Positions 118 to 59,600 of a stretch of 64,000 nt of DNA are shown piece after piece. The stretch lies in the IMG/VR virus record IMGVR_UViG_3300022200_000021. One strand, given 5' to 3'. Each line of letters opens with the position of its first letter. Positions within the stretch are counted from its first letter, which is position 1. Position numbers and translations under genes: made by a program. This DNA comes from an uncultured virus (IMG/VR IMGVR_UViG_3300022200_000021). Lineage: Duplodnaviria; Heunggongvirae; Uroviricota; Caudoviricetes. The notes beneath the pieces were generated by a model. The model had not been told where the DNA came from and ran no database searches. It saw only the letters and a list, made by a program, of their open reading frames with translations.

Positions 118-971
118 TGGGATGGTTTCGTAAAATAAGAGCAGGTTTAGTAAAACAACCTCGCGAGAGTTTTACAGGAGAAGATGGTAATATCTTCTTT
201 GATATTGATACTGGATCATTTTTTTTAAGCGACGGTGTTACTCCTGGAGGGATTCCATTAGGAGCAGGTGGCAGTGGAGTAACTACAACCGATCAGCTAG
301 TTGAAGGGGTTACTAATTTATTTTACACAGATGATCGAGTTATTAATGTATTTAATCAGGAAGTTGTAAATGCTGGCTATATTACATTATCTTCATTAAG
401 TGCATCCGGTGACTTAAATTATGATAATACTACTGGTACATTCAGTGTTAATACATACAGCTCTACTGATTTTGATGTTGATTTTTCCATTAAAACAGCA
501 GACGACTTAGCAGAAGGTATATTAAACCAATATTATTCAGATGCAAAAGTTGATGACAGATTAGCTGTATTAAGTATTGATAGTTTAGGAGATGTATCGT
601 TAACATCGGAAACAGATAACGATGTGTTAATGTATAACAGCAGCACTAACTCGTTTGTAAATACAAGTATTAACTTGTACGGTGGTGTAGCGAATCAAGT
701 ATTAGTTAAAAAATCTGATACTGATTATGATTATGTATGGGAAGATATGATTTTACAGCAACCTATTTATACAAAATTAATAGACGATGCTTCTACTGTA
801 AATGTAACTTATTTAGGTGAAGCTGTTCCTGAAAGTTTAGAAAGTGATTTTGTATGGAGAATACAAAAAATTGTATTTGATGTTTATGGAAATGTAGACG
901 AAGTAAGATTTGCCGCAGGCGGATCTTTTACTCAAAGTTGGAATGATAGATTAGGATTAACATACTTATGA
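117..971 (+). CDS. Putative virion/tail fibre-associated protein
   Basis: N-terminal GEDGNIFFDIDTGSFFLSDGVTPGG motif and repeated TxDxLxEGxxNxYY units typical of phage fibre proteins. Confidence 0.55.
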   Translation: MGWFRKIRAGLVKQPRESFTGEDGNIFFDIDTGSFFLSDGVTPGGIPLGAGGSGVTTTDQLVEGVTNLFYTDDRVINVFNQEVVNAGYITLSSLSASGDLNYDNTTGTFSVNTYSSTDFDVDFSIKTADDLAEGILNQYYSDAKVDDRLAVLSIDSLGDVSLTSETDNDVLMYNSSTNSFVNTSINLYGGVANQVLVKKSDTDYDYVWEDMILQQPIYTKLIDDASTVNVTYLGEAVPESLESDFVWRIQKIVFDVYGNVDEVRFAAGGSFTQSWNDRLGLTYL

Positions 972-1390
972 AAATAGCATTTTATATAGCCAAACATGGC
1001 AAATTTGAAGATAAGATTATTTCATTTTTAACTAAATCACCGTACTCTCATGTTGAAATGGTATTTAGTGATGGAATTTGTGCAAGCAGCAGTCAACGTG
1101 AAGATGGTGTTCGATTTAAAAAAATTAATATTTACAATGGCAAGTGGGATGTATACGAAGTTAAGGATATTTTTTGCGAACGATTAGTTCGGCAATGGTT
1201 CGTTGACAATGATGGGGATAAGTACGACTGGACTGGAGCTGTTGGATCTTGGCTAGGGATTGACTTATACAAAGAAGATCGTAAATTTTGCTCACAGTCA
1301 TGTGCAATTGTGCTAGACAGATTTAGAAATCAAACTCCAGCTAGTTTATATAAAGACTTAATGGACAACGGTATTATTTTCAAGGATTAA
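968..1390 (+). CDS. Permuted papain-like (NlpC/P60, YiiX/YebB-type) amidase
   Basis: PYSHVEM (His) precedes KYDW and KFCSQ (Cys), the permuted catalytic order. Confidence 0.7.
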   Translation: MKIAFYIAKHGKFEDKIISFLTKSPYSHVEMVFSDGICASSSQREDGVRFKKINIYNGKWDVYEVKDIFCERLVRQWFVDNDGDKYDWTGAVGSWLGIDLYKEDRKFCSQSCAIVLDRFRNQTPASLYKDLMDNGIIFKD

Positions 1391-1391
1391 T

Positions 1392-1811
1392 ATGTCGGTT
1401 AAAATTGCAGGGTGTTGGGAACGCGGATGGGATACTGCTTGGCAAGAATATAATTGGTGGGTTCATCCTTTAAAAGAATTTGGAATTTCTGAATTTTATA
1501 TGAATCCTATCACTGGAATATCTAAATCAAATGTAATAGAGTTTAATAACATTCTTGAAATAATAAATTCAGTTACCGATCACACGTGCGTATATTTAGA
1601 TGAATCTGCTACAACAAATTTAGTAGACTTTGTTCATCCTACAAATGCGTTATATATTATTGGCAGGACGTCGTATAGTCCGTATGTTGCACATTTTAGA
1701 CCTGGTATTGATCAAGCTGTAAAAATTCCTTCTTTAGCAAATAACGGCGGATTTTGGGGGCATCAAGTGGCAACAATGATTCTATATGATAGATACGTTA
1801 AGGAATTATAA
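1392..1811 (+). CDS. SPOUT-family (SpoU/TrmL-like) methyltransferase
   Basis: LVDFVHPTNALYIIG...AVKIP...QVATMILYDR resembles the SPOUT knot motifs. Confidence 0.6.
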   Translation: MSVKIAGCWERGWDTAWQEYNWWVHPLKEFGISEFYMNPITGISKSNVIEFNNILEIINSVTDHTCVYLDESATTNLVDFVHPTNALYIIGRTSYSPYVAHFRPGIDQAVKIPSLANNGGFWGHQVATMILYDRYVKEL

Positions 1812-3502
1812 TGGCTGTTATTATTACAGATAATCGAACTGTTGTTGATCAAGCAGACTCTACTACCGGTTGGGGTGGGAGCAACTCACCTCAAGTATAT
1901 ACTACACAACCTAGCCCAGTTGAATCGACTGGTTGTTTAGGAATGGACGTATCTACTACAACAGACGAACTTTACTTTACACTAGGTACTTCTGCTAATT
2001 TAACAGATACGTTAGTATATGTTTGGGTATTACCAAACGGTGCATTAGACACAACTGTTGCAGGAGGTGTACAAATTGTTCTCGGTGACAGTACAAATAG
2101 GAACGGGTATCACACAGGGGGATCAGATTTTGCTAGTTTTAGACATAATAGCGGTCCTGTAGCTTGGCAGTGTTTAGTTATCGACACTGGTAATTTACCT
2201 ACTAACAGCACAAGTTTTGCCGGCACACCTGCTAGTATCACTCTTTCAGCGATAACACAAATTGGTTCTGCATTTACTACTGTATCAAAAGCAATTGGTG
2301 GTTTAGAAAATTGTTTTACAGATATTATGTTTTACGGTAATAACGGTTTAACTATTACTGGAGGAGGCACTGGTACTGAAGGTAAGTTTTCAGAAATTGC
2401 TGCGTTAGATCGTACTACTTCAGGGCATCCAGGAACAGGTGTTGCAAGTTCAACTGGTGGAGCATATGGAATTTGTCGAGAACTAGGTACAAAATTGTTT
2501 GGCTTACAAGGGCCGTTATTTTTCGGCGACGCTGCTGGAACAGGATCTTTAGACTTTGAAGATACTGATGTTAGTGTTGTATTTGAGAATTACGGGATCG
2601 GCACTAACAAATATGGGATTACAATTCAAGGAAATGCAACTGGGACTACGAGTTTTGTATTAGGTACTCGCACAGGAGCAGGTACTGGTTCGAATGGATG
2701 TAGTGTTGTAGTACCTGTCGGAGTAGGTGGATATTTAACTGCTTCAAATGCCAATATAGACACGTTCGGATTATATGCGTGTACATTAAATAATTTCGAT
2801 CAAGGTGTAACTTTTTCTAGTTCGTCAAGTTCGCATGAGGTTTTTGCTACATCGTTTGTCGGCTGTTCTCAAATTGGTATTGGAACTATTGTGTTTAAAA
2901 ATAACATTATTTCCAATTCAACTGCAACCGGTAATACGGAAGCTGCTGTTTTAATGAATAGCACTTCTTCTGTTAGTGATTTAACTTTTATCAGTGGAGG
3001 TACAGGACATGCAATTGAAATATCAAGTGCTACTGCTAACCAGGAGTTTAGTTTAATTAACTTTGAATTTCAAGGGTATGCTGGAGCAAATGGCGGTACC
3101 GGTAACGAAGCAATTTTAAATACTTCAGGGCAACCGATAATTATAAATGTAACAAATGCTTCTGGTTTTGTATCTGTTGATACAACTAATAGTACTGGAA
3201 CTGTAACTATTGTCAACAATGTTAATGTTACTATAGAAATCTTAGATGCTAGTACAACTCCAATTCAAAGTGCTGTAGTAGCTGTATATGCTACTTCTGA
3301 TTCTTCAGAAATATTTAACAATACAACTGATAGTAGTGGTCAAGTTTCATTTACTACGTCAGGAGGTACTGACTTGTTCATCCGTGTTCGTAAAAGCACT
3401 TCTGGAAGTACTCGGTATGTTCCATTGGAAACTATTGCATCATCGGGATCGGGTTTATTTTTAACCCTTACATTACAGGAAGATTTAATAGCGAGTGTTT
3501 AA
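1811..3502 (+). CDS. Gly/Ser/Thr-rich virion protein with beta-rich repeats and a C-terminal Ig-like domain
   Basis: Composition and structural gene context; C-terminal PIQSAVVAVY...TTDSSGQVSF pattern. Confidence 0.5.
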   Translation: MAVIITDNRTVVDQADSTTGWGGSNSPQVYTTQPSPVESTGCLGMDVSTTTDELYFTLGTSANLTDTLVYVWVLPNGALDTTVAGGVQIVLGDSTNRNGYHTGGSDFASFRHNSGPVAWQCLVIDTGNLPTNSTSFAGTPASITLSAITQIGSAFTTVSKAIGGLENCFTDIMFYGNNGLTITGGGTGTEGKFSEIAALDRTTSGHPGTGVASSTGGAYGICRELGTKLFGLQGPLFFGDAAGTGSLDFEDTDVSVVFENYGIGTNKYGITIQGNATGTTSFVLGTRTGAGTGSNGCSVVVPVGVGGYLTASNANIDTFGLYACTLNNFDQGVTFSSSSSSHEVFATSFVGCSQIGIGTIVFKNNIISNSTATGNTEAAVLMNSTSSVSDLTFISGGTGHAIEISSATANQEFSLINFEFQGYAGANGGTGNEAILNTSGQPIIINVTNASGFVSVDTTNSTGTVTIVNNVNVTIEILDASTTPIQSAVVAVYATSDSSEIFNNTTDSSGQVSFTTSGGTDLFIRVRKSTSGSTRYVPLETIASSGSGLFLTLTLQEDLIASV

Positions 3503-5864: not shown

Positions 5865-6512
5865 ATGGATATGTTTAAATTGTATGAGGATTTTGTAGAT
5901 TCATCGTGGATTGACCAAATCGTCTTACAAAATAATAATGTAGATGTAACTCTTGTTTTGCTCAACGGTCGACGGTATTTGATTAAAAATGTAGGTCCTG
6001 AGTTATTTGATCAGTGGGTTAATGCTGAGAGTAAAGGAAAATTCTTTCATTACAACATAAAACATAATCATGCTATTTCACGATTAATAGGGCCTTCATC
6101 TACTCCCATTATACCTACTACTACAAAAAGAAACGCATCAGTTCGACAAACTATGAAGTCATTACCACCTAAATCTGGTGGAGAGAAAATACCACATAGT
6201 AAAATTGTATACATCAATAAACTGTTAAAACATGCTGATACACTTTTTGGGAAAGAAAAAAACAAACAATTATCAGATATCGGTGATTTAATAATACGAC
6301 TAGCTAAAAAAGGTTTGGATGTATCTACTGTTAAAAGTAAATGGCTTTCCTCTGCAAGAGAAAAAGATAAGTTTATTTCTGACTCTACATATCGATCAAT
6401 TTCAAATATGTTAACAGAATATCATATATCATGGAATAATTTAGGAGTTAGATTTTCACTTGTTGAATCTAAAGGAAAAAAACTTTATCATATTACAAAA
6501 TCATATATCTAG
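5865..6512 (+). CDS. KTSC-domain protein with a basic C-terminal domain
   Basis: SSWIDQI...GRRYLIKNVGPELFDQWVNAESKGKFFHYNIK matches the KTSC pattern. Confidence 0.65.
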   Translation: MDMFKLYEDFVDSSWIDQIVLQNNNVDVTLVLLNGRRYLIKNVGPELFDQWVNAESKGKFFHYNIKHNHAISRLIGPSSTPIIPTTTKRNASVRQTMKSLPPKSGGEKIPHSKIVYINKLLKHADTLFGKEKNKQLSDIGDLIIRLAKKGLDVSTVKSKWLSSAREKDKFISDSTYRSISNMLTEYHISWNNLGVRFSLVESKGKKLYHITKSYI

Positions 6513-6532
6513 GTTAAATTAACATAAAAAGA

Positions 6533-6538
6533 TAAATA
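6533..6538 (+). promoter_or_regulatory. T4-like late promoter motif TAAATA (representative copy)
   Basis: TAAATA recurs just upstream of structural or cargo genes at 6533, 7457, 8611, 9796, 30577, 44351, 45997, 48045, 53132, 53623, 62088, and on the minus strand at 31864-31869 and 40754-40759. Confidence 0.55.
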
Positions 6539-6599
6539 CTTACATACAAGTTCGCAGAGAAAGCGAATTTGCCATTATTAAAGAATAGGAGAATTAGCA

Positions 6600-6923
6600 A
6601 TGGCAACTTTTGAAAGAGTAAACGGCATTGGTCACGAATTAAACACTTTATACAGTACTTTACAATTAAAAGTATTTAAAGTTACTGTATCAGCTGCATT
6701 AACTACCGGTATCGGTGGTACTGCTGAAGCATTAGCTCGTGAGTTCGGCACTACAGGTGCTTTATTTGAATTTACCACAAATGGTAAAGATATGATTATT
6801 ATTGGTGACGGTCATGCACTGGATGCTGATATTGTTAAAATTCGTGCAGATCAAGTATTAGGTGTAGATAATACAGTTGTAGTTGAAGCAACTTCACTGG
6901 TAGGTATTACTGCTACTGCATAA
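6600..6923 (+). CDS. Small, probably abundant virion protein
   Basis: Late motif, 5' hairpin TTCGC-AGAGAAA-GCGAA, AGGAG RBS and its own terminator. Confidence 0.55.
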   Translation: MATFERVNGIGHELNTLYSTLQLKVFKVTVSAALTTGIGGTAEALAREFGTTGALFEFTTNGKDMIIIGDGHALDADIVKIRADQVLGVDNTVVVEATSLVGITATA

Positions 6924-6960
6924 AGATTCCTACTACCTTAGGAACGGTGTGTTACACCAC

Positions 6961-6994
6961 AAAAAGGCTTACATTTTTGTAAGCCTTTTTTTTT
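6961..6994 (+). terminator. Intrinsic terminator
   Basis: AAAAAGGCTTACA-TTTT-TGTAAGCCTTTTT followed by a T-run. Confidence 0.85.
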
Positions 6995-7049
6995 GATGCT
7001 GTTACTAAATATTTTATATAATACATTACATAACACAAATGAGATTAAA

Positions 7050-7439
7050 ATGAAATTCCAACTATATACTTTAATAGATATTACCGAAACACACGGTCGT
7101 AGAGGAGATGCTGACTACATTGTAAATCAGCAACAAAACTTTTTAACTGTATTACAAACTATTGGATTACGTGTTAACCCAATTTATTCAGTTAGTCCTA
7201 TTAAGTTTACAGATAAACCAATAAACTACAAATTAGGATCAGCATATAAAGATCAGCATCAAATATGGTCATTTATTTTTGAAATCGAACATGAAAATGC
7301 ATTAAGTGTAGAAATGCTTCGATCTGATTTTAATTTAATACCCATCATATTAGGATTAGACGAAACTGCTCCGATTAAAATTCCATCATTCAATACCTTA
7401 GATAAAAAGATGGCAAATATTCACTTTGATAATTATTAA
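7050..7439 (+). CDS. Hypothetical protein (start likely 7050, MKFQLYTLIDIT)
   Basis: The track start at 6993 lies inside the terminator; there is an in-frame ATG at 7050. Confidence 0.6.
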   Translation: MKFQLYTLIDITETHGRRGDADYIVNQQQNFLTVLQTIGLRVNPIYSVSPIKFTDKPINYKLGSAYKDQHQIWSFIFEIEHENALSVEMLRSDFNLIPIILGLDETAPIKIPSFNTLDKKMANIHFDNY

Positions 7440-11956: not shown

Positions 11957-13597
11957 ATGTCAGAACAGATTATGATCGTTAAACGCGATGGGGTCGAAGA
12001 ACCATTAAACATTGAAAAGATTCATTTTGTAGTAGAGGAGGCATGTGCAAATCTTGCAGGAGTAAGTGCTAGTCAAATTGAAATGAATGCAAATTTACAA
12101 TTTTATAACAAAATGAGTACCCATGAAATACAAAAAATCCTTATTAGGTCTGCTAGTGATTTAATATCATTAGAATCTCCTAATTATCAATATGCTGCTG
12201 CTCGTTTAATGAGTTATAATTTAAACAAACAGGTGTACGGACAATATCGACCGGTTCCTTTGTATGATATTATTGTTTCTAATGTTAATCGAGGAGTGTA
12301 TGATAAATCATTTTTAGATATGTTTTCTAAAGAAGACATAGAAAAATTAGAATCAATGATCCATTATAATCGCGATGAAAACTTTACATATGCAGGGTTA
12401 AGACAAATTGTTGACAAATATTTAGTTCAAGACAGATCAACTGGACAAATTTTTGAGACTCCTCAAATAATGTACATTATGATTGCTGCTACTATGTTTT
12501 CTCAATACGATAAAGCATCTCGTATGCATTATATTAAAAAATATTACGACGGACTATCATTATTTCATATTAATATTCCAACCCCTGTAAATGCAGGCGT
12601 TAGGACTCCTGTACGGCAGTATGCTAGTTGTGTGCTAGTTGATAGCGACGATACGTTAAACAGCATTTTTTCAAGTGATATGGCTATTGGTCGGTATACT
12701 GCTTTACGTGCAGGTATAGGTATTAATTCTGGAAGAATTAGAGGAGTAAACTCTAAAGTTAGAGGAGGAGAAGTTGCACATACTGGCGTTATTCCATTTT
12801 TAAAGAAATTTGAATCTACTGTTAAATGCTGTACACAAAACGGTGTTAGAGGTGGAAGTGCAACTGTTCATTTTCCAATTTGGCATCAAGAAATTAAAGA
12901 TATATTAGTTTTGAAAAACAACAAAGGTACTGAAGATAATCGAGTTAGAAAATTAGATTATTCTATTCAAATTAATAAAACTATGATTGAGAGATTTCTC
13001 AGTAATGGAAATATTACTTTATTTTCCCCTCATGACGTTCCAGATTTATACGAAGCGTATTTTGGAGACCCTGATGTATTTTCTAAATTATATTCTGCAT
13101 ATGAAAAAAATTCAAATATTAAACAATCAGTAGTTCCTGCTGTTGAACTGTTTTCTACTTTAATTAAAGAAAAAACTGAAACTGGCAGATTGTATATAAT
13201 GTTTACCGATCATTGTAATAATCATAGTTCATTTTTAGATACTGTTTATATGAGTAACTTGTGTTTGTCCGGTGATACTATTATCCATGCTATTGTAAAT
13301 AATACCGAACAAGCTATTACATTAGAACAAGCTAATACACATTTTCATAATGGCGAAACTATTGATGTACTATCGTTTAACGAATACACTCAAAAGTCTG
13401 AATACAAACGGATTTCTAACAGTGCGTTAACTAACACTTCTGCTAAGGTAATGAAAATTACAGACTCAACGTCCGGTAAATCCATTATATGTACACCAGA
13501 GCATAAAGTTTATACTGAAAATAGAGGTTATGTGTTAGCAAAAAACTTGACAGAAACCGACAAATTACGTATAATAAATAATTTTTCACAAGAATAA
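11957..13597 (+). CDS. nrdA: Class Ia RNR alpha, piece 1 (aa 1-435, with ATP cone) fused to split-intein N-part 1
   Basis: IVKRDG ATP cone, QYASCVL (C225 equivalent), QNGVRGG; ...YMSNL|CLSGDT...CTPEHK intein blocks A and B. Confidence 0.95.
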   Translation: MSEQIMIVKRDGVEEPLNIEKIHFVVEEACANLAGVSASQIEMNANLQFYNKMSTHEIQKILIRSASDLISLESPNYQYAAARLMSYNLNKQVYGQYRPVPLYDIIVSNVNRGVYDKSFLDMFSKEDIEKLESMIHYNRDENFTYAGLRQIVDKYLVQDRSTGQIFETPQIMYIMIAATMFSQYDKASRMHYIKKYYDGLSLFHINIPTPVNAGVRTPVRQYASCVLVDSDDTLNSIFSSDMAIGRYTALRAGIGINSGRIRGVNSKVRGGEVAHTGVIPFLKKFESTVKCCTQNGVRGGSATVHFPIWHQEIKDILVLKNNKGTEDNRVRKLDYSIQINKTMIERFLSNGNITLFSPHDVPDLYEAYFGDPDVFSKLYSAYEKNSNIKQSVVPAVELFSTLIKEKTETGRLYIMFTDHCNNHSSFLDTVYMSNLCLSGDTIIHAIVNNTEQAITLEQANTHFHNGETIDVLSFNEYTQKSEYKRISNSALTNTSAKVMKITDSTSGKSIICTPEHKVYTENRGYVLAKNLTETDKLRIINNFSQE

Positions 13598-13710
13598 GGA
13601 AATACACAATGAGTTTAATTATAGAATATTTAGATGCCCCTATTGAAGTTTACGATATAACCGTCGAGGATAATCATAATTTTTATGCAAATGACATTCT
13701 TGTACACAAT
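13262..13710 (+). mobile_element. Split intein 1 (IntN 13262-13594, 111 aa; IntC 13609-13710, 34 aa)
   Basis: Cys1, TxxH, VYDITVEDNHNFYANDILVHN|C; sits immediately before the radical Cys; resembles the NrdA-2 split intein as I recall its sequence. Confidence 0.92.
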
Positions 13711-13866
13711 TGCCAAGAAATTACGTTACCTACTACTCCATTGCAACACATCGATGACATCGGCACTACTGAAAAACGATTAGTAAAAGTTAAGAAATCA
13801 GATATGGATAAGTACAATGAGTACAAAAAATCGATTGGTAATTATTTACAAGATCGTTCTATTTAA
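13609..13866 (+). CDS. nrdA: RNR alpha piece 2: IntC1 + CQEITLPTTPL (C439/E441 equivalents) + basic tail
   Basis: HN|CQEITLPT aligns with E. coli NL-CLEIALPT; own AGGA RBS. Confidence 0.92.
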   Translation: MSLIIEYLDAPIEVYDITVEDNHNFYANDILVHNCQEITLPTTPLQHIDDIGTTEKRLVKVKKSDMDKYNEYKKSIGNYLQDRSI

Positions 13867-13877
13867 AAGGAAATATA

Positions 13878-14825
13878 ATGAATGAATTATACAGTTTTGT
13901 AACAGAGTGCGATAACGACGATGAGTATGTGTATTTTGAAGAAGACGTTATTGTAAGTAAAGATTCTCCTGCAATTGCTCTTTGCATTTTATCTGCTATT
14001 AATTTAGGATCTATTAAACATTTAGATCAATTAGAAGAACTGTGCGAGTTAACTGTACGGTCTTTAGATGAATTGATAGATTATCAGGAATATCCTGTTA
14101 AAGCGGCTGAAATTGAAACTAAAGCTCGAAGATCTCTAGGAATCGGATACGTAGGGTTAGCACATTACTTAGCTAAACATCATGTGAAATATGATGATCC
14201 AAAGGCTTGGAAATTAGTACACGATTTATCTGAGGCATTTCAATATTACTTATTAAAAGCAAGTAACAACTTAGCTAAAGAAAAAGGCCCTTGTTTGTAT
14301 TTTAACCGTACAAAATATTCAAAAGGAATCTTACCAATTGACACTTACAAAAAAGATGTTGACTTAATTGTTCCACATTCTCTTGCTTACGATTGGGAAA
14401 GTTTAAGAGCTGATATCGTTACACATGGCTTACGTCATTCAACATTATCTGCACAAATGCCTAGTGAATCGTGCTTAAACTGGGAACATAAAATTTTAAC
14501 AAATAAAGGGTATTTAAACTTTCACGAAATTTGTGAAATGAATCATATTAGTTGGTATCGAATTGAATTAAATAATGCTATAGGATGGTTTACGTTAGAA
14601 GAACCGTTAATAGTTCCAACTCTTGAAGGGAATAAAGAAGTAACTAAAATTTATTTCAACGGTCATAAAGAAGTTGTATCGATTACTTTAGATAATGGGA
14701 AAGTAATTAAATGTACACCGACTCATAAATTCTTAGTTCGAACAGAAAATAACCAAACATTATGGAAGCATGCAAGTGAATTAAATGAAAATGATGATAT
14801 TATTGAATTAAACTTAAAGGATTAG
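13878..14825 (+). CDS. nrdA: RNR alpha piece 3: acidic head + AIALCILSAINLG (C462 equivalent)...AQMPSES + split-intein N-part 2
   Basis: RRSLGIG and GLRHSTLSAQMPSES|CLNWEH...CTPTHKF; own AGGA RBS. Confidence 0.93.
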   Translation: MNELYSFVTECDNDDEYVYFEEDVIVSKDSPAIALCILSAINLGSIKHLDQLEELCELTVRSLDELIDYQEYPVKAAEIETKARRSLGIGYVGLAHYLAKHHVKYDDPKAWKLVHDLSEAFQYYLLKASNNLAKEKGPCLYFNRTKYSKGILPIDTYKKDVDLIVPHSLAYDWESLRADIVTHGLRHSTLSAQMPSESCLNWEHKILTNKGYLNFHEICEMNHISWYRIELNNAIGWFTLEEPLIVPTLEGNKEVTKIYFNGHKEVVSITLDNGKVIKCTPTHKFLVRTENNQTLWKHASELNENDDIIELNLKD

Positions 14826-14932
14826 TAATGAAAGTTAAAAAAGTAGAGTTTTTAAATGAAGTGTTACCAACGTATGACATCGAAGTTCCTGATGTTCATC
14901 ATTACGTTGTTGAGAATTTAATCTCGCATAAC
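14472..14932 (+). mobile_element. Split intein 2 (IntN 14472-14822, 117 aa; IntC 14828-14932, 35 aa)
   Basis: Cys1, TPTH block B, TYDIEVPDVHHYVVENLISHN|S. Confidence 0.9.
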
Positions 14933-15343
14933 AGCTCAGTTGTGTCTAATGCAACTAACGGTGTAGAACCTCCTAGAGGGTTTTTATCTGTTAAAAAATC
15001 AAAAAAAGGACCACTAAAGCAAATTGTACCTCAATATCAAACACTTAAAAACCATTATACTTTACTGTGGGATATGCCTTCAAATAAAGGATATTTAAAT
15101 ATAATGGCAGTTATGCAAAAGTTTTTTGATCAATCTATTTCAACTAACTGGAGTTATAATCCAACTCAGTATTCTAACAATGAAATTCCAATGAGCGTGT
15201 TAACTGAAGATTTACTACAATCATATAAGTATGGATTAAAAACAGTTTATTATTCAAATACATACGATTATAAAACTGACCCAAGTGAAATTGACGATTC
15301 TGCTACTGATTCAGATGAAGAATGTAGCGCATGTAAACTGTAA
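14828..15343 (+). CDS. nrdA: RNR alpha piece 4: IntC2 + C-terminal domain
   Basis: HN|SSVVSNATNGVEP, DQSISTN, KTVYY (Y730/Y731 equivalents), C-terminal CSACKL. Confidence 0.93.
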   Translation: MKVKKVEFLNEVLPTYDIEVPDVHHYVVENLISHNSSVVSNATNGVEPPRGFLSVKKSKKGPLKQIVPQYQTLKNHYTLLWDMPSNKGYLNIMAVMQKFFDQSISTNWSYNPTQYSNNEIPMSVLTEDLLQSYKYGLKTVYYSNTYDYKTDPSEIDDSATDSDEECSACKL

Positions 15344-15353
15344 GGAATTATAA

Positions 15354-16457
15354 ATGGCTAAAACTATTTTCAATAATAAAAACATAGATTTTACTAAAGA
15401 ATATATGTTTTTTGGTGAGGATCAAAATACACAAAGATATGATGTTTTTAGATTTCCCGTATTTGACAAATTAAATCAAACAATGTTAGGATACTTTTGG
15501 AGGCCTGAGGAAGTTAGTCTCCAAAAAGATCGAGCAGATTATGCTGAATTTAGACCTGAACAAAAGCATATTTTCACTAGTAACTTGAAGTATCAAATCT
15601 TATTAGATTCTGTACAAGGTAGAGGTCCATGTACTGCATTTTTACCATTTATCAGTTTACCTGAATTAGAAGGTGCTGTTGTTACTTGGGACTTTTTTGA
15701 AACAATTCATTCTAGATCATATACTCATATTATAAAAAATATTTACCCTGATCCTAGTGAAATTTTTGATACTATTTTAAATGATGAAGAGATTATTAAA
15801 CGTGCATCAAGTGTAACTAAAAATTACGATTCATTCATAGATGCTGCTAATAATTTTATCTATAACAAATCTGGAACATTACGGGAAGTTAAGAAAAAAC
15901 TATTTCTTGCAATGATGAATGTTAATATCTTAGAAGGATTAAGATTTTATGTATCATTTGCGTGTTCATTTGCATTTGGTGAATTAAAACTAGTCGAAGG
16001 TTCGGCTAAAATTATTAGTTTAATTGCAAGAGATGAAGCACAACATTTAGCTATTTCTACACATATAATTAAATTATGGGCTCAGGGAAAAGACGATCCT
16101 GAAATGGTTAGCATTATTAAAGAGTGCGAAGATGAAGTTTATCAAATGTGGGAAACTTGTATTGCTGAAGAAATGGCATGGGCTGATTACTTATTTAAAG
16201 ATGGTTCGATTATAGGTCTAAACAGCACATTGTTACACCAGTACAGTAAATATATTGCAAATCGAAGACTTAAATCTATTGGATATAATCCAATGTTTGA
16301 TGCACCGATTAATAACAACCCGTTACCGTGGACTACACACTGGTTGTCTAGTTCAACTTTACAAAATGCTCCTCAAGAGACAGAAATTGAAAGTTATATA
16401 GTAGGCGGTATTAAACATGACTTAAATATAAATAATTTTTCAAATTACAAACTATAA
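15354..16457 (+). CDS. nrdB: Class Ia RNR beta subunit
   Basis: FWRPEEV, DSVQGR, ETIHSRSY, EGLRFYVSF, RDEAQH, APQETEIESY. Confidence 0.97.
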   Translation: MAKTIFNNKNIDFTKEYMFFGEDQNTQRYDVFRFPVFDKLNQTMLGYFWRPEEVSLQKDRADYAEFRPEQKHIFTSNLKYQILLDSVQGRGPCTAFLPFISLPELEGAVVTWDFFETIHSRSYTHIIKNIYPDPSEIFDTILNDEEIIKRASSVTKNYDSFIDAANNFIYNKSGTLREVKKKLFLAMMNVNILEGLRFYVSFACSFAFGELKLVEGSAKIISLIARDEAQHLAISTHIIKLWAQGKDDPEMVSIIKECEDEVYQMWETCIAEEMAWADYLFKDGSIIGLNSTLLHQYSKYIANRRLKSIGYNPMFDAPINNNPLPWTTHWLSSSTLQNAPQETEIESYIVGGIKHDLNINNFSNYKL

Positions 16458-16482: not shown

Positions 16483-16707
16483 ATGCATAATATAATTGTA
16501 TGGAGTAAAGATCAATGCCCGCAATGCGAGCAAGCAGTTTCATTTTTAAATTCTAAAAACTTAGAATTTGAAATTAGAAAAATAGGCAATGGATGGTCTA
16601 AAGAGGATTTATTAAGTGCTGTTCCAAGTGCAAGATCTGTTCCTCAAATTTTCGTCGATGATATGCACATTGGCGGTCTTAATGAATTATTAAAATTTCA
16701 ACTTTAA
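16483..16707 (+). CDS. Glutaredoxin
   Basis: CPQC, SVPQIF, IGG. Confidence 0.92.
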   Translation: MHNIIVWSKDQCPQCEQAVSFLNSKNLEFEIRKIGNGWSKEDLLSAVPSARSVPQIFVDDMHIGGLNELLKFQL

Positions 16708-17010: not shown

Positions 17011-17301
17011 ATGACATTACCGGTACATAGAAGAACAGATAATTGTACAGGACACGGATGCTGGCCTCCTAGACCTCCTTCGTCATGGAGTCCAGATGTG
17101 TTTGCAAACAATTTAAATCAAATTAGATTAACAGATTCTTATGTTGTTCATTGTTGCGGTAATGGGTGTCATTCAGGAGTAGTTGCAGATGGCAGTGAAA
17201 CTGTATTTGCAAATAACTTAGAATATGCTCGTCAAAGCGATCCTATCTCATGCGGTAGTCGATGCAACGAGCATAGTCCAGATGTATTTGCAGGAGATTA
17301 A
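17011..17301 (+). CDS. PAAR spike-tip protein (gp5.4-like)
   Basis: CTGHGCWPP, SPDVFAN, GSETVFAN, DPISCG, SPDVFAG. Confidence 0.88.
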   Translation: MTLPVHRRTDNCTGHGCWPPRPPSSWSPDVFANNLNQIRLTDSYVVHCCGNGCHSGVVADGSETVFANNLEYARQSDPISCGSRCNEHSPDVFAGD

Positions 17302-35626: not shown

Positions 35627-35655
35627 TTGACATAATATTAACAAACATGTATAAT
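35627..35655 (+). promoter_or_regulatory. Sigma70-type promoter
   Basis: TTGACA-17 nt-TATAAT, perfect consensus. Confidence 0.88.
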
Positions 35656-40761: not shown

Positions 40762-40790
40762 TTGACAGAAGTAAAAAAATGCTATATAAT
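40762..40790 (+). promoter_or_regulatory. Sigma70-type promoter
   Basis: TTGACA-17 nt-TATAAT. Confidence 0.88.
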
Positions 40791-46903: not shown

Positions 46904-46933
46904 TTGACAAATCAATAAAAACTACAGTATAAT
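46904..46933 (+). promoter_or_regulatory. Sigma70-type promoter
   Basis: TTGACA-18 nt-TATAAT. Confidence 0.8.
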
Positions 46934-53676: not shown

Positions 53677-56600
53677 ATGGCAAAACAAGAAATTGATATC
53701 GGTGTTGAAGGTAATGACGGTACCGGAGATAGTATACGAGAATCATTTAGAAAAGTAAATGAAAATTTTAACGAATTGTATGCTGTTTTTGGTATAGGAG
53801 GCCAGATATCATTTACTGATTTAGGCGATGTTCCTGATGCATATAATAATAATGAAAATAAAGCAGTTATTGTAAAATCAGACGGGTCAGGATTAACTTT
53901 CTTAGAACTAGCAAGTAACAGCGCATTAGATAATACAGCCGATACTATTGGTTTTGATTTTACAGTTGATGGAAAATTAATAGTACGTCAACTTTCATCA
54001 AAATTAAGTAACGACCCGAAAGCAGAATTATCAAGCCCACTTAATGCAAATTCGTATGCTATTGCAAATGTAGAAGTATCATCTGATGCTATTGACTTGT
54101 TTAACAATGTTCATAATACTGATTTCACGTTAGATGCATTAGTTATTAACAAAGGGTATGCAGATCAAACATATCAAAAAAAACAAATTTCAGGAAGTGG
54201 AATTAGGATAGGTGATGAACCTCAAGATACTAGTAATTATATTTTAACTACATCTACAATTTCATCTGGATATTTATACATTCAAGATCATGGATTAACT
54301 TCTGAATATACCGGCGGAGCTTACATTTTTAACTCATCAGGTTCAGATCCTGCAGGTGTAGTTTCAGGTGAAATATATTATATACGTATACAAGATGAAA
54401 ACAATATTGGATTATATTCTTCTGCAGAAGATGCTATTAATAATGTTAATAGAATATTATTAACTGGCGGAACTGGAGAATTTACGTTAACAGACTTGTA
54501 CTACGATCCGTCGCTATTAGGAAACTGGTTATCTAATTCTGTACTTCCAAGATATGCAGTTGTACGGCGCCAAGGAGATACAATGGAAGGACCATTGTAC
54601 TTATCAGATCATCCTGGCGATTTGTCCGGCACAGGAACTCCTAACGATGCTACTGATTTGCAAGCAGCTACTAAATTATATGTTGACAATGCTGCAGTAA
54701 CTAGCAATGTTAATCTATTTGTAAACACATCCGGAGACGATCGTCAACTGTCAACTCCTATAGGTAGAGAAGGAAGATCACCCGGCTATGCATATCGAAC
54801 AATAAACGCTGCTGCTAGAAAAGCAGAAGAACTTATACTAGCAACTCCATACGAGCCCGGCCCTTATATACAAACAATTACATATGGTAATAATAGCAAT
54901 AATTCGACTATTATTACATCAGGAATGAGCTCCCCAATTTCCGGTCGTAATAATTCTAGAACACTTATTTTAAAAAATAAAGTGTTTATTGTGAATGAAG
55001 TTATTGGATTTATAAAATCTACTTATCCAAGTTTTTCTGACAATTACGATATTGAGCTATGTCAGAGAGATATAGAATTAATTTTAGAAAGTGTATCATT
55101 AGACTCGTTATCTGGAAACAATGCTAATTACTTATCTCGATGGGCTGGCATTCGATACTACTCAAATATTAGTTCTAGGAATGCAATTAGTAGACAAAAA
55201 GTACAAACTGTTGCTAGTATTGAATTTGTAAGAGATTTAGTAGTAGACTATATTTTAACAAATACTGCGGTAGATACTATGTATCAAACAAAGTATACAC
55301 AGTATATAAATGAAACTGTAGTACCTGACTTACAAGCAGCATCTGTAATAGAAGCGAAATTTAACGTAGTATTAACTGTAATCGAATCTGGAGTATTAGG
55401 AGCGCCTGGTGTTATTGACGGTGGAACTACATATAAAATTAATTTATCCAATGGCAATAATGGTCATGTTGACCAAGCAGATCCAATTAATACAGACATT
55501 ATACCTGGGAAAATAGTTAGAGGAAAACTTTCAGGAGCTGTTGGCAGAATCATCGACTATAAGTACGAAGCAGGGCCTAGAGCAGTTAGTTTACTTGAAA
55601 CAGATGAGATAGATGTTCAGCTATTAGAACCAATTGAGTTTGAAAATGGCGAAGAACTGGAATATGGTAATATTGTAAGAAATAATCATATTGCTATATT
55701 TGTTGAATCTGGCGTATATGAAGAAGATTTCCCTATACGATTACCTCCGAATGTATCAATCTGCGGGGACGAATTACGTAGATGTGTTATTAAACCTAAA
55801 AATAGAATATCTCAATCTATTTGGGCTGATATGTATTTTTATCGTGATGCAGAATTTGACGGTATGGTATTAGGTAAAAGTAATATAGAAACTATTACAT
55901 ACGATGCTCAAACTGATGTATATCGCATACCCGGTACATATACTGTAAGTTCTTACATTTCAGAGTTTTTTGGAAAAGATGCAGTATTTAGAATAACAGT
56001 AGGAAGCGGAGGTGAGATTTCAAATGTAGAAATATTAGAGTTTGGAACATCATTTCAAAAAGATGAAAGAATATTTATAAAAGATGCACAATTAGGTAAC
56101 AACGGTGCTGCAGATATTGTGTTAACTGTTACTAAAGTTCCAAATGGTGTTGAATATATAAATCCGTTAACTCAACGAGTTGACGGATACTTTGGCAGAC
56201 ATTATCTCACTGATCCAGCATTGACTAAAAATGTTGGCAGTGTCTATGAGAATGTTGGAAGATGGGTAGCTGCTACTGAAATTATTCGTGTTAACAAACT
56301 TTTTTTACAGGAACAAGCTACAAATTATGTAGAATATTTTTTCCCTGCATATGTACTATCTGGAGATTATTCAAGATCGATCTTTTTCAAAAATATAGGT
56401 CTTATTATTGATGGATTAATTAATGATTTAAATAACGGTGGCAATGAATATGCTTTAGAACTTCAAGGAAAATTCTACGATATTGCGAATCGTTATAATG
56501 CAACTTCTGAAATTAATAATTCAATTCGTTTTATAAACACGCTATTAACACAATTGTACAACGCAGAAGAACCGGTATTAACATATGGAACTGAATCAAC

Positions 56601-59600
56601 TAAAACATACGATCACGATATTTCATTAGGAATTGCTGATCCGTTTGAATGGGCTCCAAGTACGCTTTATAAAGAAAAAGAAGTTGTTAAAGTTTTAGCA
56701 TCGGGTGTATATTACTATTATGTTGCAACAAAAACACATACGTCATCATTAGAATTTGATTATTTAGAAAGTATTAATTATTGGAGAGAAATTGACGGTG
56801 TTTATGCTGCAACTGAAAATTTAATAGATACTATTGTTTATTGGTTTGATGGTGAATATAATCCTCCACTAAACAATAAAGACTTAGATGTATTTTTATT
56901 AAATGATGCAACTATGATTAGGAACATATCAGTTCACGGTCATGGAGGATTTATGGGAGTACTTGATCCTGAAGGCCAAGTATTAACAAAATCACCATAT
57001 ATTCAAGGATCTTCGTCGTTTTCAAAATCATCAAACAAACAATCATTCAGTGGTGGTATCTTTGTAGATGCATTTGTGGGAAATACTGCTGTTCAAGTAT
57101 ATGAAAAAATAGATGGAGATCCATTTAGAATTATGGTTCAGAGTTATGGATCTCAAGCAGAACCACAAGGATTATTCGTCCGTAGACCTGAAACACCTAG
57201 CGTGTTTTATATAGATGGAAAACGATTTCAAGTTAATGCAATTGCACAATATGATCCAGATTTAGGTATAGCAGAATTAAAATTAGATTATAGTTCAAAT
57301 AACAATCTTGGTTTTTCTGGAGTAACTAGTAGTTTATCTACAGGTGTTAACTTAAATGATTTATCTAGTCCAATTCCTATTACATTGCAAACTGCAGGTA
57401 ATAGATCAATATTAGGTAATGACTTTACTAATATTAACGATTTAGGTTATGGATTAGTAGTTGCTAATGGGGCATTGTCAGAACTAGTATCAATGTTTAC
57501 ATATTATTGCTGGGCATCATACTATTCAAAAAATGGATCACAAATTAGGTCTTTGTCTAGTTCAAGTTGTTACGGTGAATATGGATTAGTAGCAGATGGG
57601 TTTGACCCAAATGAAATTCCAGATGATATTTTTCTAGCTCAAGATATGGTTCAATCAGCTAGAACTTTTAATGCTAATGTTATTTTAACATTATCTGGGG
57701 GTGTAGTAGTTGAACAAGGGCAAGTATTAACGCAAGTGAGTAGCGGTGCTTTCGGCACAGTTGTAGTTGATTCAAGCGATACTTCAGGGTCAACTGTAAT
57801 TTATCTTATCAATGTTCAAGGAGCATTTGATTTAACTAATGAATTGGAAATTACTGAAACAGCACTTGGAGCTCCTACTTCTGTAGCATTAGGTGCAAAC
57901 AGTGTGCCAGTTTCAATTGATCCAGATGGGTACACAAACCAATTGGAAAAATTGTTCTTGTATGCATTCGATTTTAAAGATGTTCCATCATCAAGATCTG
58001 AATTTGACATATATCATGAAACTAAACAAATCTTTGCTAGATACGAAGTAGCAAACGTAGAAAAAACTAATGCGTGTGTAGGAAGATACGAAAATGTAGG
58101 AACATCGATTCCAGTTACTAAAGATGTAACTAATCCTCTTGCTAACAATGCAGTATTTACAATTTATAAAACTATTCACAATGGGTATTCTGCAGATATA
58201 ATTTCAAACGGTACAAACTTTACAGTAGGAGATACTATTACAGTTGACGGTAACTTATTAGGAGGTACTAGTGTAGAACATGATGCTATTATTACAGTAA
58301 CTGAAATTGATAATGGTGATCCTGTAGCATTAACTGGAATTATTACAGCATTTTCAATTGCAGGTACTATTAAAGTTGAAGCGTCGACTCCGATGTTTGA
58401 CGGTCGTGTATATAAATTGAATTTTTCTACTAGCGAAACTCAATTTAGTCGTAACGGTTTATTAGAAAATGTTCCATATGGTAAAATAATAAATTATAGA
58501 AGAAATCAAACACATATAATTTCAGATATTAAATCACAAGAATTAATAGCAATTAGACCGTCAACTGCTATAGTCTTTGATGAAAATACTGATACTGTAT
58601 ATCGTTCGATATCATTTTTAACTAGCGATAGTATAGGCAATGAATTGCCAGATGGAACTGCACAAGTTAGTTTTGATGAAGGTTACGACTATATTCGATT
58701 AATCATTGACAGTGCAAGAGCTCAAACTAGTGAATTAGCCGGCTCAGGTACAACTAAAGGTGCAACAATAGGAGATGTGCGGTTAGCACTGCAACCAGTT
58801 TCTGACACTAATGAAATATATCGATTAAACAATAATAGCAAGACACCTGAAGGATTTAGGCCATTAGGGTGGAGACCAGAAACATTAGTAGAAGCACCTA
58901 TTATATCATGGGGTGGAAAAACACATTATGTGTTTAATTATCGAGGTGTTGATTCAGAAGGAAACGAAGTCCCTGTTTCAGAAAATATAGCGTATGCACT
59001 TGTTGATCTAGAAGATATTGAAACTATTAACCAAACAGACTCTACAGGTATAGCACTTCCAGTTATCTACGGATCAGAAAATATTACTATTAGAGCAGGG
59101 TTGAAAGCAAATCAAACTGGAAACATTACTGTAGGTATTTCAACATGTCGAGTAACTGGGCATGATTTCTTAGACATAGGTACAGGTAGTTATAACAATA
59201 CTAATTTCCCAAATGTAATTTTCGGAAGCCCAAGTGAAAAAGACAGCTCTAAAGAAGTTACAGAAATTAATAAAGGCCGTGTATTTTATACATCAACAGA
59301 TCAGGATGGTGTTTTTAGAGCTGGAAGATTCTTTAGTGTAGACCAAGGTACAGGCACAGTTTCGTTTGCTGCTAACATTGCACTTTCCGATGTTGATGGA
59401 TTAGGATTCAAGCGTGGAGTTGTTATTACTGAATTTTCCACAGACACTGCAATGGCTGACAATGCATCTGATACAGTACCTACTGAAAGTGCCGTTCGAG
59501 GATACATTAATCGAAGACTAGGATTTGATACAAATGGAAATGTTATAGTTAATAAAATCGGCCCAGGTGCAATTGCAGCAGATGGCTCAACTATTTTAAC

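Follow-up and report, generated by a model that had tools for sequence, protein, structure and literature searches.

A 64,000-nucleotide (nt) stretch of DNA from an uncultured virus (IMG/VR record IMGVR_UViG_3300022200_000021), referred to here in its entirety as the window, carries four open reading frames (ORFs) on the + strand which, as judged from their domain content and aligned residues, jointly encode one class Ia ribonucleotide reductase (RNR) large subunit, NrdA. Piece 1 lies at 11957-13597 (546 amino acids, aa), piece 2 at 13609-13866 (85 aa), piece 3 at 13878-14825 (315 aa) and piece 4 at 14828-15343 (171 aa). These coordinates leave gaps of 11, 11 and 2 nt, as had been stated in an earlier account made from the letters alone (hereafter the sequence-only reading), and each of the four ATGs has a ribosome-binding site of the AAGGA(A) type 6-8 nt upstream. 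By Pfam, piece 1 combines an ATP-cone and an RNR all-alpha domain with barrel positions 1-212 and the N part of an intein, and piece 2 has the C part of an intein (residues 5-34). Piece 3 has barrel positions 215-392 and a further intein N part, and piece 4 an intein C part (2-35) and barrel positions 393-522. The ten-stranded barrel profile, part of the domain content of a class Ia NrdA, is in this way distributed over pieces 1, 3 and 4, and the partner gene of this class, nrdB, is adjacent (Pfam Ribonuc_red_sm, E 1e-46).

The exteins were aligned piece by piece against E. coli R1 chains and relatives. The first, E1 (435 aa, 11957..13261), comprises the ATP-cone, the all-alpha domain and the start of the barrel, is 72% identical to a contiguous NrdA, carries the equivalents of C225 and N437 (its N434), and terminates in SNL, the end corresponding to L438 of E. 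coli R1. Piece 2 carries C439 and E441 as its C35 and E37, directly after the intein, in an extein core of 16 aa (13711..13758), which in 78 of 80 relatives is followed immediately by the next core. The extein core of piece 3 (13974..14471) contains C36, equivalent to C462, and terminates in MPSES at the equivalent of T624. On piece 4, S36 corresponds to S625, and extein E4 (136 aa, 14933..15343) supplies Y141/Y142, equivalent to Y730/Y731, as well as the C-terminal Cys pair. The full class Ia catalytic set (C225, N437, C439, E441, C462, Y730, Y731 and the C-terminal Cys pair) is therefore present, with every residue on the piece to which the sequence-only reading had assigned it, and the exteins are 68-73% identical to the NrdA of a related locus, L015. 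The segments of pieces 1-4 measure 435+111, 34+51, 198+117 and 35+136 aa respectively, in agreement with the mature chains of 486 and 334 aa that had been predicted.

The stop codons between the pieces are genuine. Identical protein segments in the same arrangement occur in a second virus record, G001, and in IMG/VR contig L010, and all three junctions are covered, with no inserted or missing letters, by contigs of four public runs from three studies; two of these runs are flagged as a possible source of the window and two are not, and their labels are those of freshwater and outdoor metagenomes. The piece 2 protein is found on seven contigs and the piece 3 protein on eight, and the same breaks are retained in diverged relatives. 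The suggestion that the stops are assembly or sequencing errors has nothing in its favour beyond the general possibility and, with the junctions recurring in this manner, its probability is negligible.

Split inteins at the first and third junctions

The N-part of split intein 1 (13262..13597; 111 aa and stop) begins with CLSGDT, the Cys being Cys1, and has TPEH as block B. It is recognised by Pfam (Intein_splicing) and has homologous N-inteins in the loci L011, L121 and L144. After an 11-nt spacer (13598..13608), in which the ribosome-binding site AAGGAAA overlaps the stop, the C-part (13609..13710; 34 aa) ends in VHN, and by Pfam and alignments its +1 residue is the thiyl-radical Cys. H33, N34 and C35 of piece 2 are invariant in alignment A2. 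For split intein 2, the N-part (14472..14825; 117 aa and stop; Pfam 41 bits, with a homologue in L011) begins with CLNWEH, including Cys1, and has TPTH as block B, and the C-part (14828..14932; 35 aa; Pfam and alignment) ends in SHN followed by Ser at +1, the equivalent of E. coli S625. The spacer between them has 2 nt (14826..14827), and the ribosome-binding site lies within the last codons of piece 3. All of these features are on the + strand. The motifs of both inteins are all intact, and the N and C parts are on separate polypeptides, with a stop, a ribosome-binding site and an ATG between them.

The sites can be compared with uninterrupted genes. The 80 best-matching IMG/VR relatives of piece 3 include 78 (L012-L089, some truncated where the contig ends) with no intein segment and no break at any of the three sites. 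As these relatives run uninterrupted through all three, the exteins of the window are exactly colinear with a normal NrdA. Split inteins occupy junctions 1 and 3, and would act by trans-splicing. The sequence-only reading had set the joints at SNL|CQE, with the radical Cys itself as the +1 nucleophile, and at MPSES|SSVV, and both are upheld by Pfam, motifs and alignments.

The two inteins differ strongly in sequence. Their C parts are identical at 10/30 positions (33%) and their N parts match locally, around block B only, a difference that fits the requirement that they do not cross-react. From their sequences we infer that both inteins would splice and would do so orthogonally. The free-standing endonuclease gene that lies between the intein halves of a 'fractured gene' is absent from the window, where the gaps are 11 and 2 nt; the relatives L011 and L144 do carry such a gene between their intein halves.

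A fractured catalytic loop with charged tails

Junction 2 lies between the beta-strands bearing C439 and C462, which is the position of the break in phage Aeh1. Uninterrupted relatives have few residues between the 16-18-aa core that follows C439 and the C462-bearing strand. In the window this loop holds a basic C-terminal tail of 35 aa and a stop (13759..13866, +; isoelectric point (pI) 9.63, net charge +4; motif EKRLVKVKKSDMDKY), an 11-nt spacer (13867..13877, +) with the ribosome-binding site AAGGAAA and without an endonuclease gene, and then, by alignment, an acidic N-terminal tail of about 30-32 aa (13878..13973, +; pI 4.05, net charge -9). The tails are missing from 78 of the 80 relatives. 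Friedrich reportedly described the nrdA-a / mobE / nrdA-b arrangement of phage Aeh1 in 2007 as 'genes in pieces'.

According to the excerpted text of Crona et al. (2010; PMC3045599), mobE splits Aeh1 nrdA between the same strands, with C431 on NrdA-a and C31 on NrdA-b, and the two chains have unique tails, of pI 10.4 and 3.8, which are unprocessed and essential for activity. Database searches with these tails found no match at that time (Crona et al., 2010). Piece 2 of the window is identical to the end of Aeh1 NrdA-a at 21/45 positions (E 2e-9), in an alignment spanning EKRLVKVKKSDMDKY / EKMLFKVKKSEVDKF. Taken alone, the C-tail is identical to that of coliphage F2 at 11/27 positions (E 2e-6), and the N-tail to that of the F2 NrdA-b at 10/17 (E 6e-4). 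The C-tail is kept in 19 other clusters, and charge is conserved throughout, with a net positive charge in 20/20 homologous C-tails and a net negative charge in 27/27 N-tails. No mobE is present in the 11-nt gap of the window; a mobE-related homing endonuclease gene (HEG) lies between the halves in L093, F2 and Aeh1.

A tblastn search of a phage collection with the C-tail alone gave 32 records at the NrdA-a ends of T4-like coliphages, at chance level (E ~7-8). The 30 listed matches do not differ in query range or identity, and the annotation of most is RNR large subunit. F2 alone was inspected among the 32, and such a chance-level match is meaningful only because in F2 it sits exactly at the end of the NrdA-a gene. 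With the N-tail alone the same collection gave just two chance-level Bacillus phage matches. A complex prediction for the two tails alone (piece 2 residues 51-85 and piece 3 residues 1-32, with alignments not paired) gave a score of 0.23, below the mark of 0.32. The proposal of an Aeh1-like, non-spliced fracture is borne out and sharpened, in that the break affects the very loop that is split in Aeh1 and is flanked by tails similar to those of Aeh1 and of HEG-split nrdA in T4-like coliphages.

The middle fracture might also be a third, degenerate split intein, the remnants of which dock the two halves in a Hint-like manner without splicing. This is raised as a possibility for Aeh1 in the excerpted text of Crona et al. 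(2010; PMC3045599), and in another lineage (L133, L139, L163, L164) an N-intein-like tail is found in the same loop. However, the tails of the window give no Hint signal in Pfam, their first position is not Cys or Ser, and the extein is not preceded by HN. The profile likeness of the tails to N- and C-inteins has a probability of at most 0.4%, and a degenerate-intein origin for them was rejected. We regard this explanation as improbable, and the earlier statement that no intein lies between pieces 2 and 3 agrees with the negative Pfam search and profile comparison.

Joining of pieces 2 and 3 in translation, through a frameshift or a bypass that would give one chain, might be suggested by a gap of merely 11 nt, and the bypass in phage T4 topoisomerase gene 60 is a precedent. 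Against this, the two pieces are in different frames and each has its own ribosome-binding site and ATG, and the geometry of the junction varies: the window has an 11-nt gap, in L121 the pieces overlap by 11 nt, and in L093, F2 and Aeh1 they are separated by a whole HEG. Moreover, a Met-initiated peptide of the N-terminal tail of Aeh1 was detected by mass spectrometry (Crona et al., 2010; PMC3045599, excerpt). A single chain made in this way is hardly credible, and a non-spliced fracture between two separate chains is the preferred reading of junction 2.

Relatives and the probable loss of endonucleases

In a collection of 5.8 billion proteins, the 85-aa adaptor of piece 2, made up of intein C1, the core and the basic tail, has 43 matches besides itself; 19 of these, at 50-71% identity, are short (79-109 aa) and have a tail of the same type. 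The best 120 relatives of piece 3 were sorted by motif, which is approximate. Among them, the acidic tail, the piece 3 extein (E3) and intein N2 occur together in six clusters, including that of the window, and the acidic tail, E3 and E4, an Aeh1-like second half, in at least 24; intein C1, an unbroken loop and intein N2 are combined in about 19.

The states of the gene were surveyed in the window and 136 fetched loci with an RNR match. There is one uninterrupted RNR match in 88 of these 137 sequences, and the other 49 are interrupted. A split intein at site 1 is accompanied by a gap ORF of at least 120 aa in 23 sequences and lacks one in six, and a contiguous intein occupies site 1 in six more. 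Contiguous intein 1 is combined with a tail fracture holding a HEG in three (L091-L093), and with a HEG-less split intein at site 3 in one (L127). Two sequences (L011, L144) have a pair of split inteins, both with an ORF in the gap; a second kind of loop fracture is seen in four, and the HEG-less four-gene layout in four, namely the window, its copy L010, and L121/L122.

Several of these loci bear directly on the state of the window. L011 (69% identical) shares with the window the two split inteins and their sites; its gap 1 holds a GIY-YIG endonuclease gene, its gap 3 a 355-aa ORF, and its loop is unbroken. L121/L122 have the same HEG-less four-gene order at about 45% extein identity; here intein 2 is a different allele, placed one residue earlier, after the equivalent of E623, with Thr at +1. 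L144 has an intein 2 allele of the L121 type with a 372-aa ORF in its gap, and gap 3 of L121 (119 nt) codes for a remnant similar to the 3' end of that ORF. L093 has window-like tails with a HEG between them (6306-7070), the C-terminal half of which (about 134 aa) has 36% identity with MobE of Aeh1 and 40% with the HEG of F2. Its N-terminal half differs from the MobE of Aeh1 and F2, and the sequence suggests a nuclease domain swapped onto a common DNA-binding part. As the layout is seen repeatedly in metagenomes, including the convergent L121/L122, it represents a family and not a singular oddity.

The absence of an endonuclease from every gap had been noted from the sequence and is confirmed by gap lengths of 11, 11 and 2 nt. 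These empty gaps are most likely derived, because HEGs occupy each of the three gaps among relatives (L011, L093, L144) and L121 keeps a remnant; the remnant in gap 3 is direct evidence of HEG loss at L121. Each break would have been created by a homing-endonuclease element, which at sites 1 and 3 would have been a HEG-bearing intein and in the loop a mobE-type cassette bringing its tails. All three endonuclease genes would later have been deleted, in this presumed order of events, to leave tightly coupled genes. The tails have a patchy occurrence, in Aeh1, some T4-like coliphages and aquatic phages whose nearest relatives are unbroken, a pattern suggestive of a tail cassette that is mobile together with its endonuclease and can persist after the latter is gone.

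In L105 (284-1549) and P0171, NrdA is continuous and the C439-C462 loop has a 70-aa insert resembling a basic tail, a linker and an acidic tail fused together. A search of 1.84 billion representatives with the L105 insert gave four matches; P0171 was the useful one, and another was a repetitive protein. On sequence grounds these inserts may be in-frame re-fusions, that is healed fractures. The opposite direction may also apply, with an old, ancestral loop insertion having been invaded later by a HEG.

Further interruptions were observed among the relatives. The second kind of fracture affects the same NrdA loop (L133 5998-6306, L139 5971-6258, L163 1-1467 and L164 4816-6258). Its C-tail matches the last ~40 N-intein columns (hhalign probability 80%, E 1.5e-5; reversed control 0.4%), the next piece begins with MKI(I/V)KKE, like a truncated C-intein, and the gap in L139 holds a HEG; this fracture looks like a degenerate split intein. 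The gap ORFs at site 3 encode 355-405 aa (L011 5906-6973, L144 7063-8181, L163 3487-4704). No Pfam family was found for them at the cut-off (with a sub-threshold match to NAGLU in L011), and their PHROGs, phrog_5104 and phrog_23051, are of unknown function. They share, by eye, a C-terminal motif containing His/Asn and ending in KCSIT, and may belong to an undescribed homing-endonuclease family.

The first extein is interrupted as well in some loci. L121 (3756-5900) has a further contiguous mini-intein in E1 (PT-HINT match, residues 339-464), and L164 (1248-6258), L141 and L146 have breaks near reference residues 292-301, with several ORFs between them in L164. With these interruptions, some nrdA genes are in five or more parts. 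Outside the window, in the near-identical record G001 (via L005), a family B DNA polymerase is also encoded by two genes, 1564-3366 and 374-1360 (-), joined by a split intein; the gap between them is 203 nt and has no ORF of at least 150 aa, the threshold of the list.

Downstream of piece 4 in the window are an intact nrdB for the small subunit (15354..16457, +) and a glutaredoxin gene (16483..16707, +; Pfam E 4.8e-12), the product of which is the likely reductant of the C-terminal Cys pair. A perfect sigma-70 consensus, TTGACA-17-TATAAT, was found by motif scan at 13547..13575 (+), within the end of intein N1 and 34 nt 5' of the piece 2 ATG. Because of this site, pieces 2-4 and nrdB may be under their own candidate promoter. 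Perfect TTGACA-N16-18-TATAAT sites number four in the window (13547-13575, 35627-35655, 40762-40790 and 46904-46933), all on the + (gene) strand, where 0.22 are expected and 0/100 shuffles reach four. Three of them precede + strand ORFs, and the fourth is that within the end of intein N1. The gene content of the window is that of a large tailed phage, with a phage GroEL (22178-23806), Hsp20, thymidylate synthase, DNA ligase, topoisomerase II, a 2619-aa fibre protein (53677-61536) and, closer to the locus, a PAAR-motif protein (17011-17301).

Assembly of the enzyme and comparison with known systems

We consider it likely that the four genes give one functional class Ia RNR large subunit, through two trans-splicing steps and one non-covalent clasp, with the HEGs lost. 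This reading is supported because the catalytic residues and intein motifs are intact, the exteins rejoin exactly and the states of the relatives agree. The enzyme is real and probably functional, its activity being predicted from sequence. Intein N1 at the end of piece 1 would bind intein C1 of the 85-aa piece 2, and trans-splicing would join SNL to CQE, giving a 486-aa alpha-a chain in which the new junction residue is the thiyl-radical Cys. Intein N2 of piece 3 would similarly bind intein C2 of piece 4, so that MPSES is joined to SSVV in a 334-aa alpha-b chain. The two chains would remain separate and form a non-covalent, Aeh1-type (alpha-a/alpha-b)2 subunit. By homology to the Aeh1 experiments, we infer that the tails would aid this assembly, the basic one at the end of alpha-a and the acidic one at the start of alpha-b. 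The large subunit would then function with NrdB2 and glutaredoxin.

An alternative is that the locus is non-functional, nrdA having been broken by selfish elements and now decaying, as has been argued for some Campylobacter phages whose nrdA is riddled with inteins (Dwivedi et al., 2013; PMC3653736, excerpt). Three breaks are many for one gene, and the genome is incomplete. However, decay is difficult to combine with catalytic residues and intein motifs that are all intact, a ribosome-binding site on every piece, undamaged frames, and intact genes for nrdB and glutaredoxin. The tails and the 85-aa adaptor are conserved over at least 19 clusters, down to 50% identity, and the same layout is maintained in L121/L122 at about 45% extein identity. 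We therefore judge decay to be highly improbable and retain the reading of a four-gene enzyme.

Several points weigh against this assembly. The N-tail of the window has no match in Aeh1 by BLASTP. In profile searches with the aquatic tails (Z = 100,000), the C-tails of F2 (E 0.71) and Aeh1 (E 6.1) are matched weakly, and the N-tails of F2 and Aeh1 not at all. Because BLASTP and profile find no match, homology of the N-tail to that of Aeh1 rests on position, charge and a short motif. In the excerpted text of Crona et al. (2010; PMC3045599), the Aeh1 tails are needed for dimerisation of the heterodimers and not for alpha-a/alpha-b binding, so that the role proposed for the tails in the window is tentative. 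Loss of the HEGs, rather than their original absence, is most likely, as a matter of parsimony and not of proof. No second nrdA was found in the 64-kb window or in the nearest record, G001 (90 kb); G001 is rated 25% complete, and the incomplete genome leaves room for another RNR gene.

A broader proposal is put forward tentatively. The tails may be a conserved, portable 'clasp' which mobE-family endonucleases carry along as they spread among widely differing phages (Aeromonas phages, coliphage T4 relatives and large aquatic phages) and which makes a break in the catalytic loop harmless. Such a break could be inherited stably after the endonuclease is lost, and could even heal in frame (L105, P0171). 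With two orthogonal split inteins, the result would be a three-junction assembly line in which an 85-aa adaptor delivers the radical Cys, and the four-gene solution would have two or more origins, in which unlike inteins were inserted one residue apart.

Each element is already known on its own. The sequence-only reading knew of no description of the combination, and in the full-text literature searched, from which most subscription journals are absent, we found none of two split inteins and a tail fracture in one gene, of a HEG-free state at all junctions, or of homologues of the Aeh1 tails. If the assembly is true, an essential enzyme is put together in nature from four polypeptides, with two distinct post-translational routes in use, and the locus shows the extent of gene fragmentation by selfish elements that is compatible with retention of the gene. 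The Aeh1 tail mechanism would be widened from a single phage, with tails that had no database match in 2010, to a widespread conserved family. Later stages of the homing-endonuclease life cycle would be on view at three sites of one gene, from invasion to loss of the endonuclease and possibly re-fusion. For protein engineering, the locus would offer a co-evolved, presumably orthogonal pair of split inteins and a small pair of heterodimerising tails.

Among known systems, Aeh1 has its break where the window does, in the loop that connects the C439 and C462 equivalents. The two also share a basic tail at the end of the first chain, an acidic one at the start of the second, a C-tail motif and the expected product (alpha-a/alpha-b)2 beta2. 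The chain lengths are 486 and 334 aa as predicted for the window, compared with 473 and 323 aa in Aeh1. Unlike Aeh1, the window has an 11-nt gap without mobE and builds each half from two genes by a split intein, and the likeness of its N-tail to that of Aeh1 is without statistical support. In coliphage F2 (NC_054913), the nrdA tails also resemble those of the window. There, however, the gene is split by an HNH endonuclease that is a mobE relative (46.7% identical to Aeh1 MobE), so that a HEG is present, and there are no inteins.

The intein side has its counterpart in the 'fractured genes' of Dassa et al. (2009; PMC2677866). The excerpted text reports the split inteins NrdA-1 to NrdA-7 in aquatic metagenomic phage sequences, directly N-terminal to the thiyl-radical Cys as in the window, and one HEG-less locus, gp41-7. 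L011 corresponds to this fractured form. The loci described in that excerpt have a single split intein per gene and usually a HEG in the gap, whereas the window has two unlike split inteins in one gene, both HEG-less, plus a fracture that is not an intein.

The IMG/VR contigs L121/L122, apparently unpublished, share the whole order of the window: the first gene is E1 plus intein N1, the second comprises intein C1, the core and the basic tail, the third the acidic tail, E3 and intein N2, and the fourth intein C2 and E4. They differ in the other intein 2 allele, an extra contiguous mini-intein in E1, and gaps of 64, -11 and 119 nt, the last holding a HEG remnant. The nrdE of Brochothrix phage A9 is likewise an RNR large-subunit gene in four ORFs (Dwivedi et al., 2013; PMC3653736, excerpt). 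In that gene the parts are reunited by RNA splicing (three introns) together with an intein, whereas in the window trans-splicing of polypeptides would take this role.

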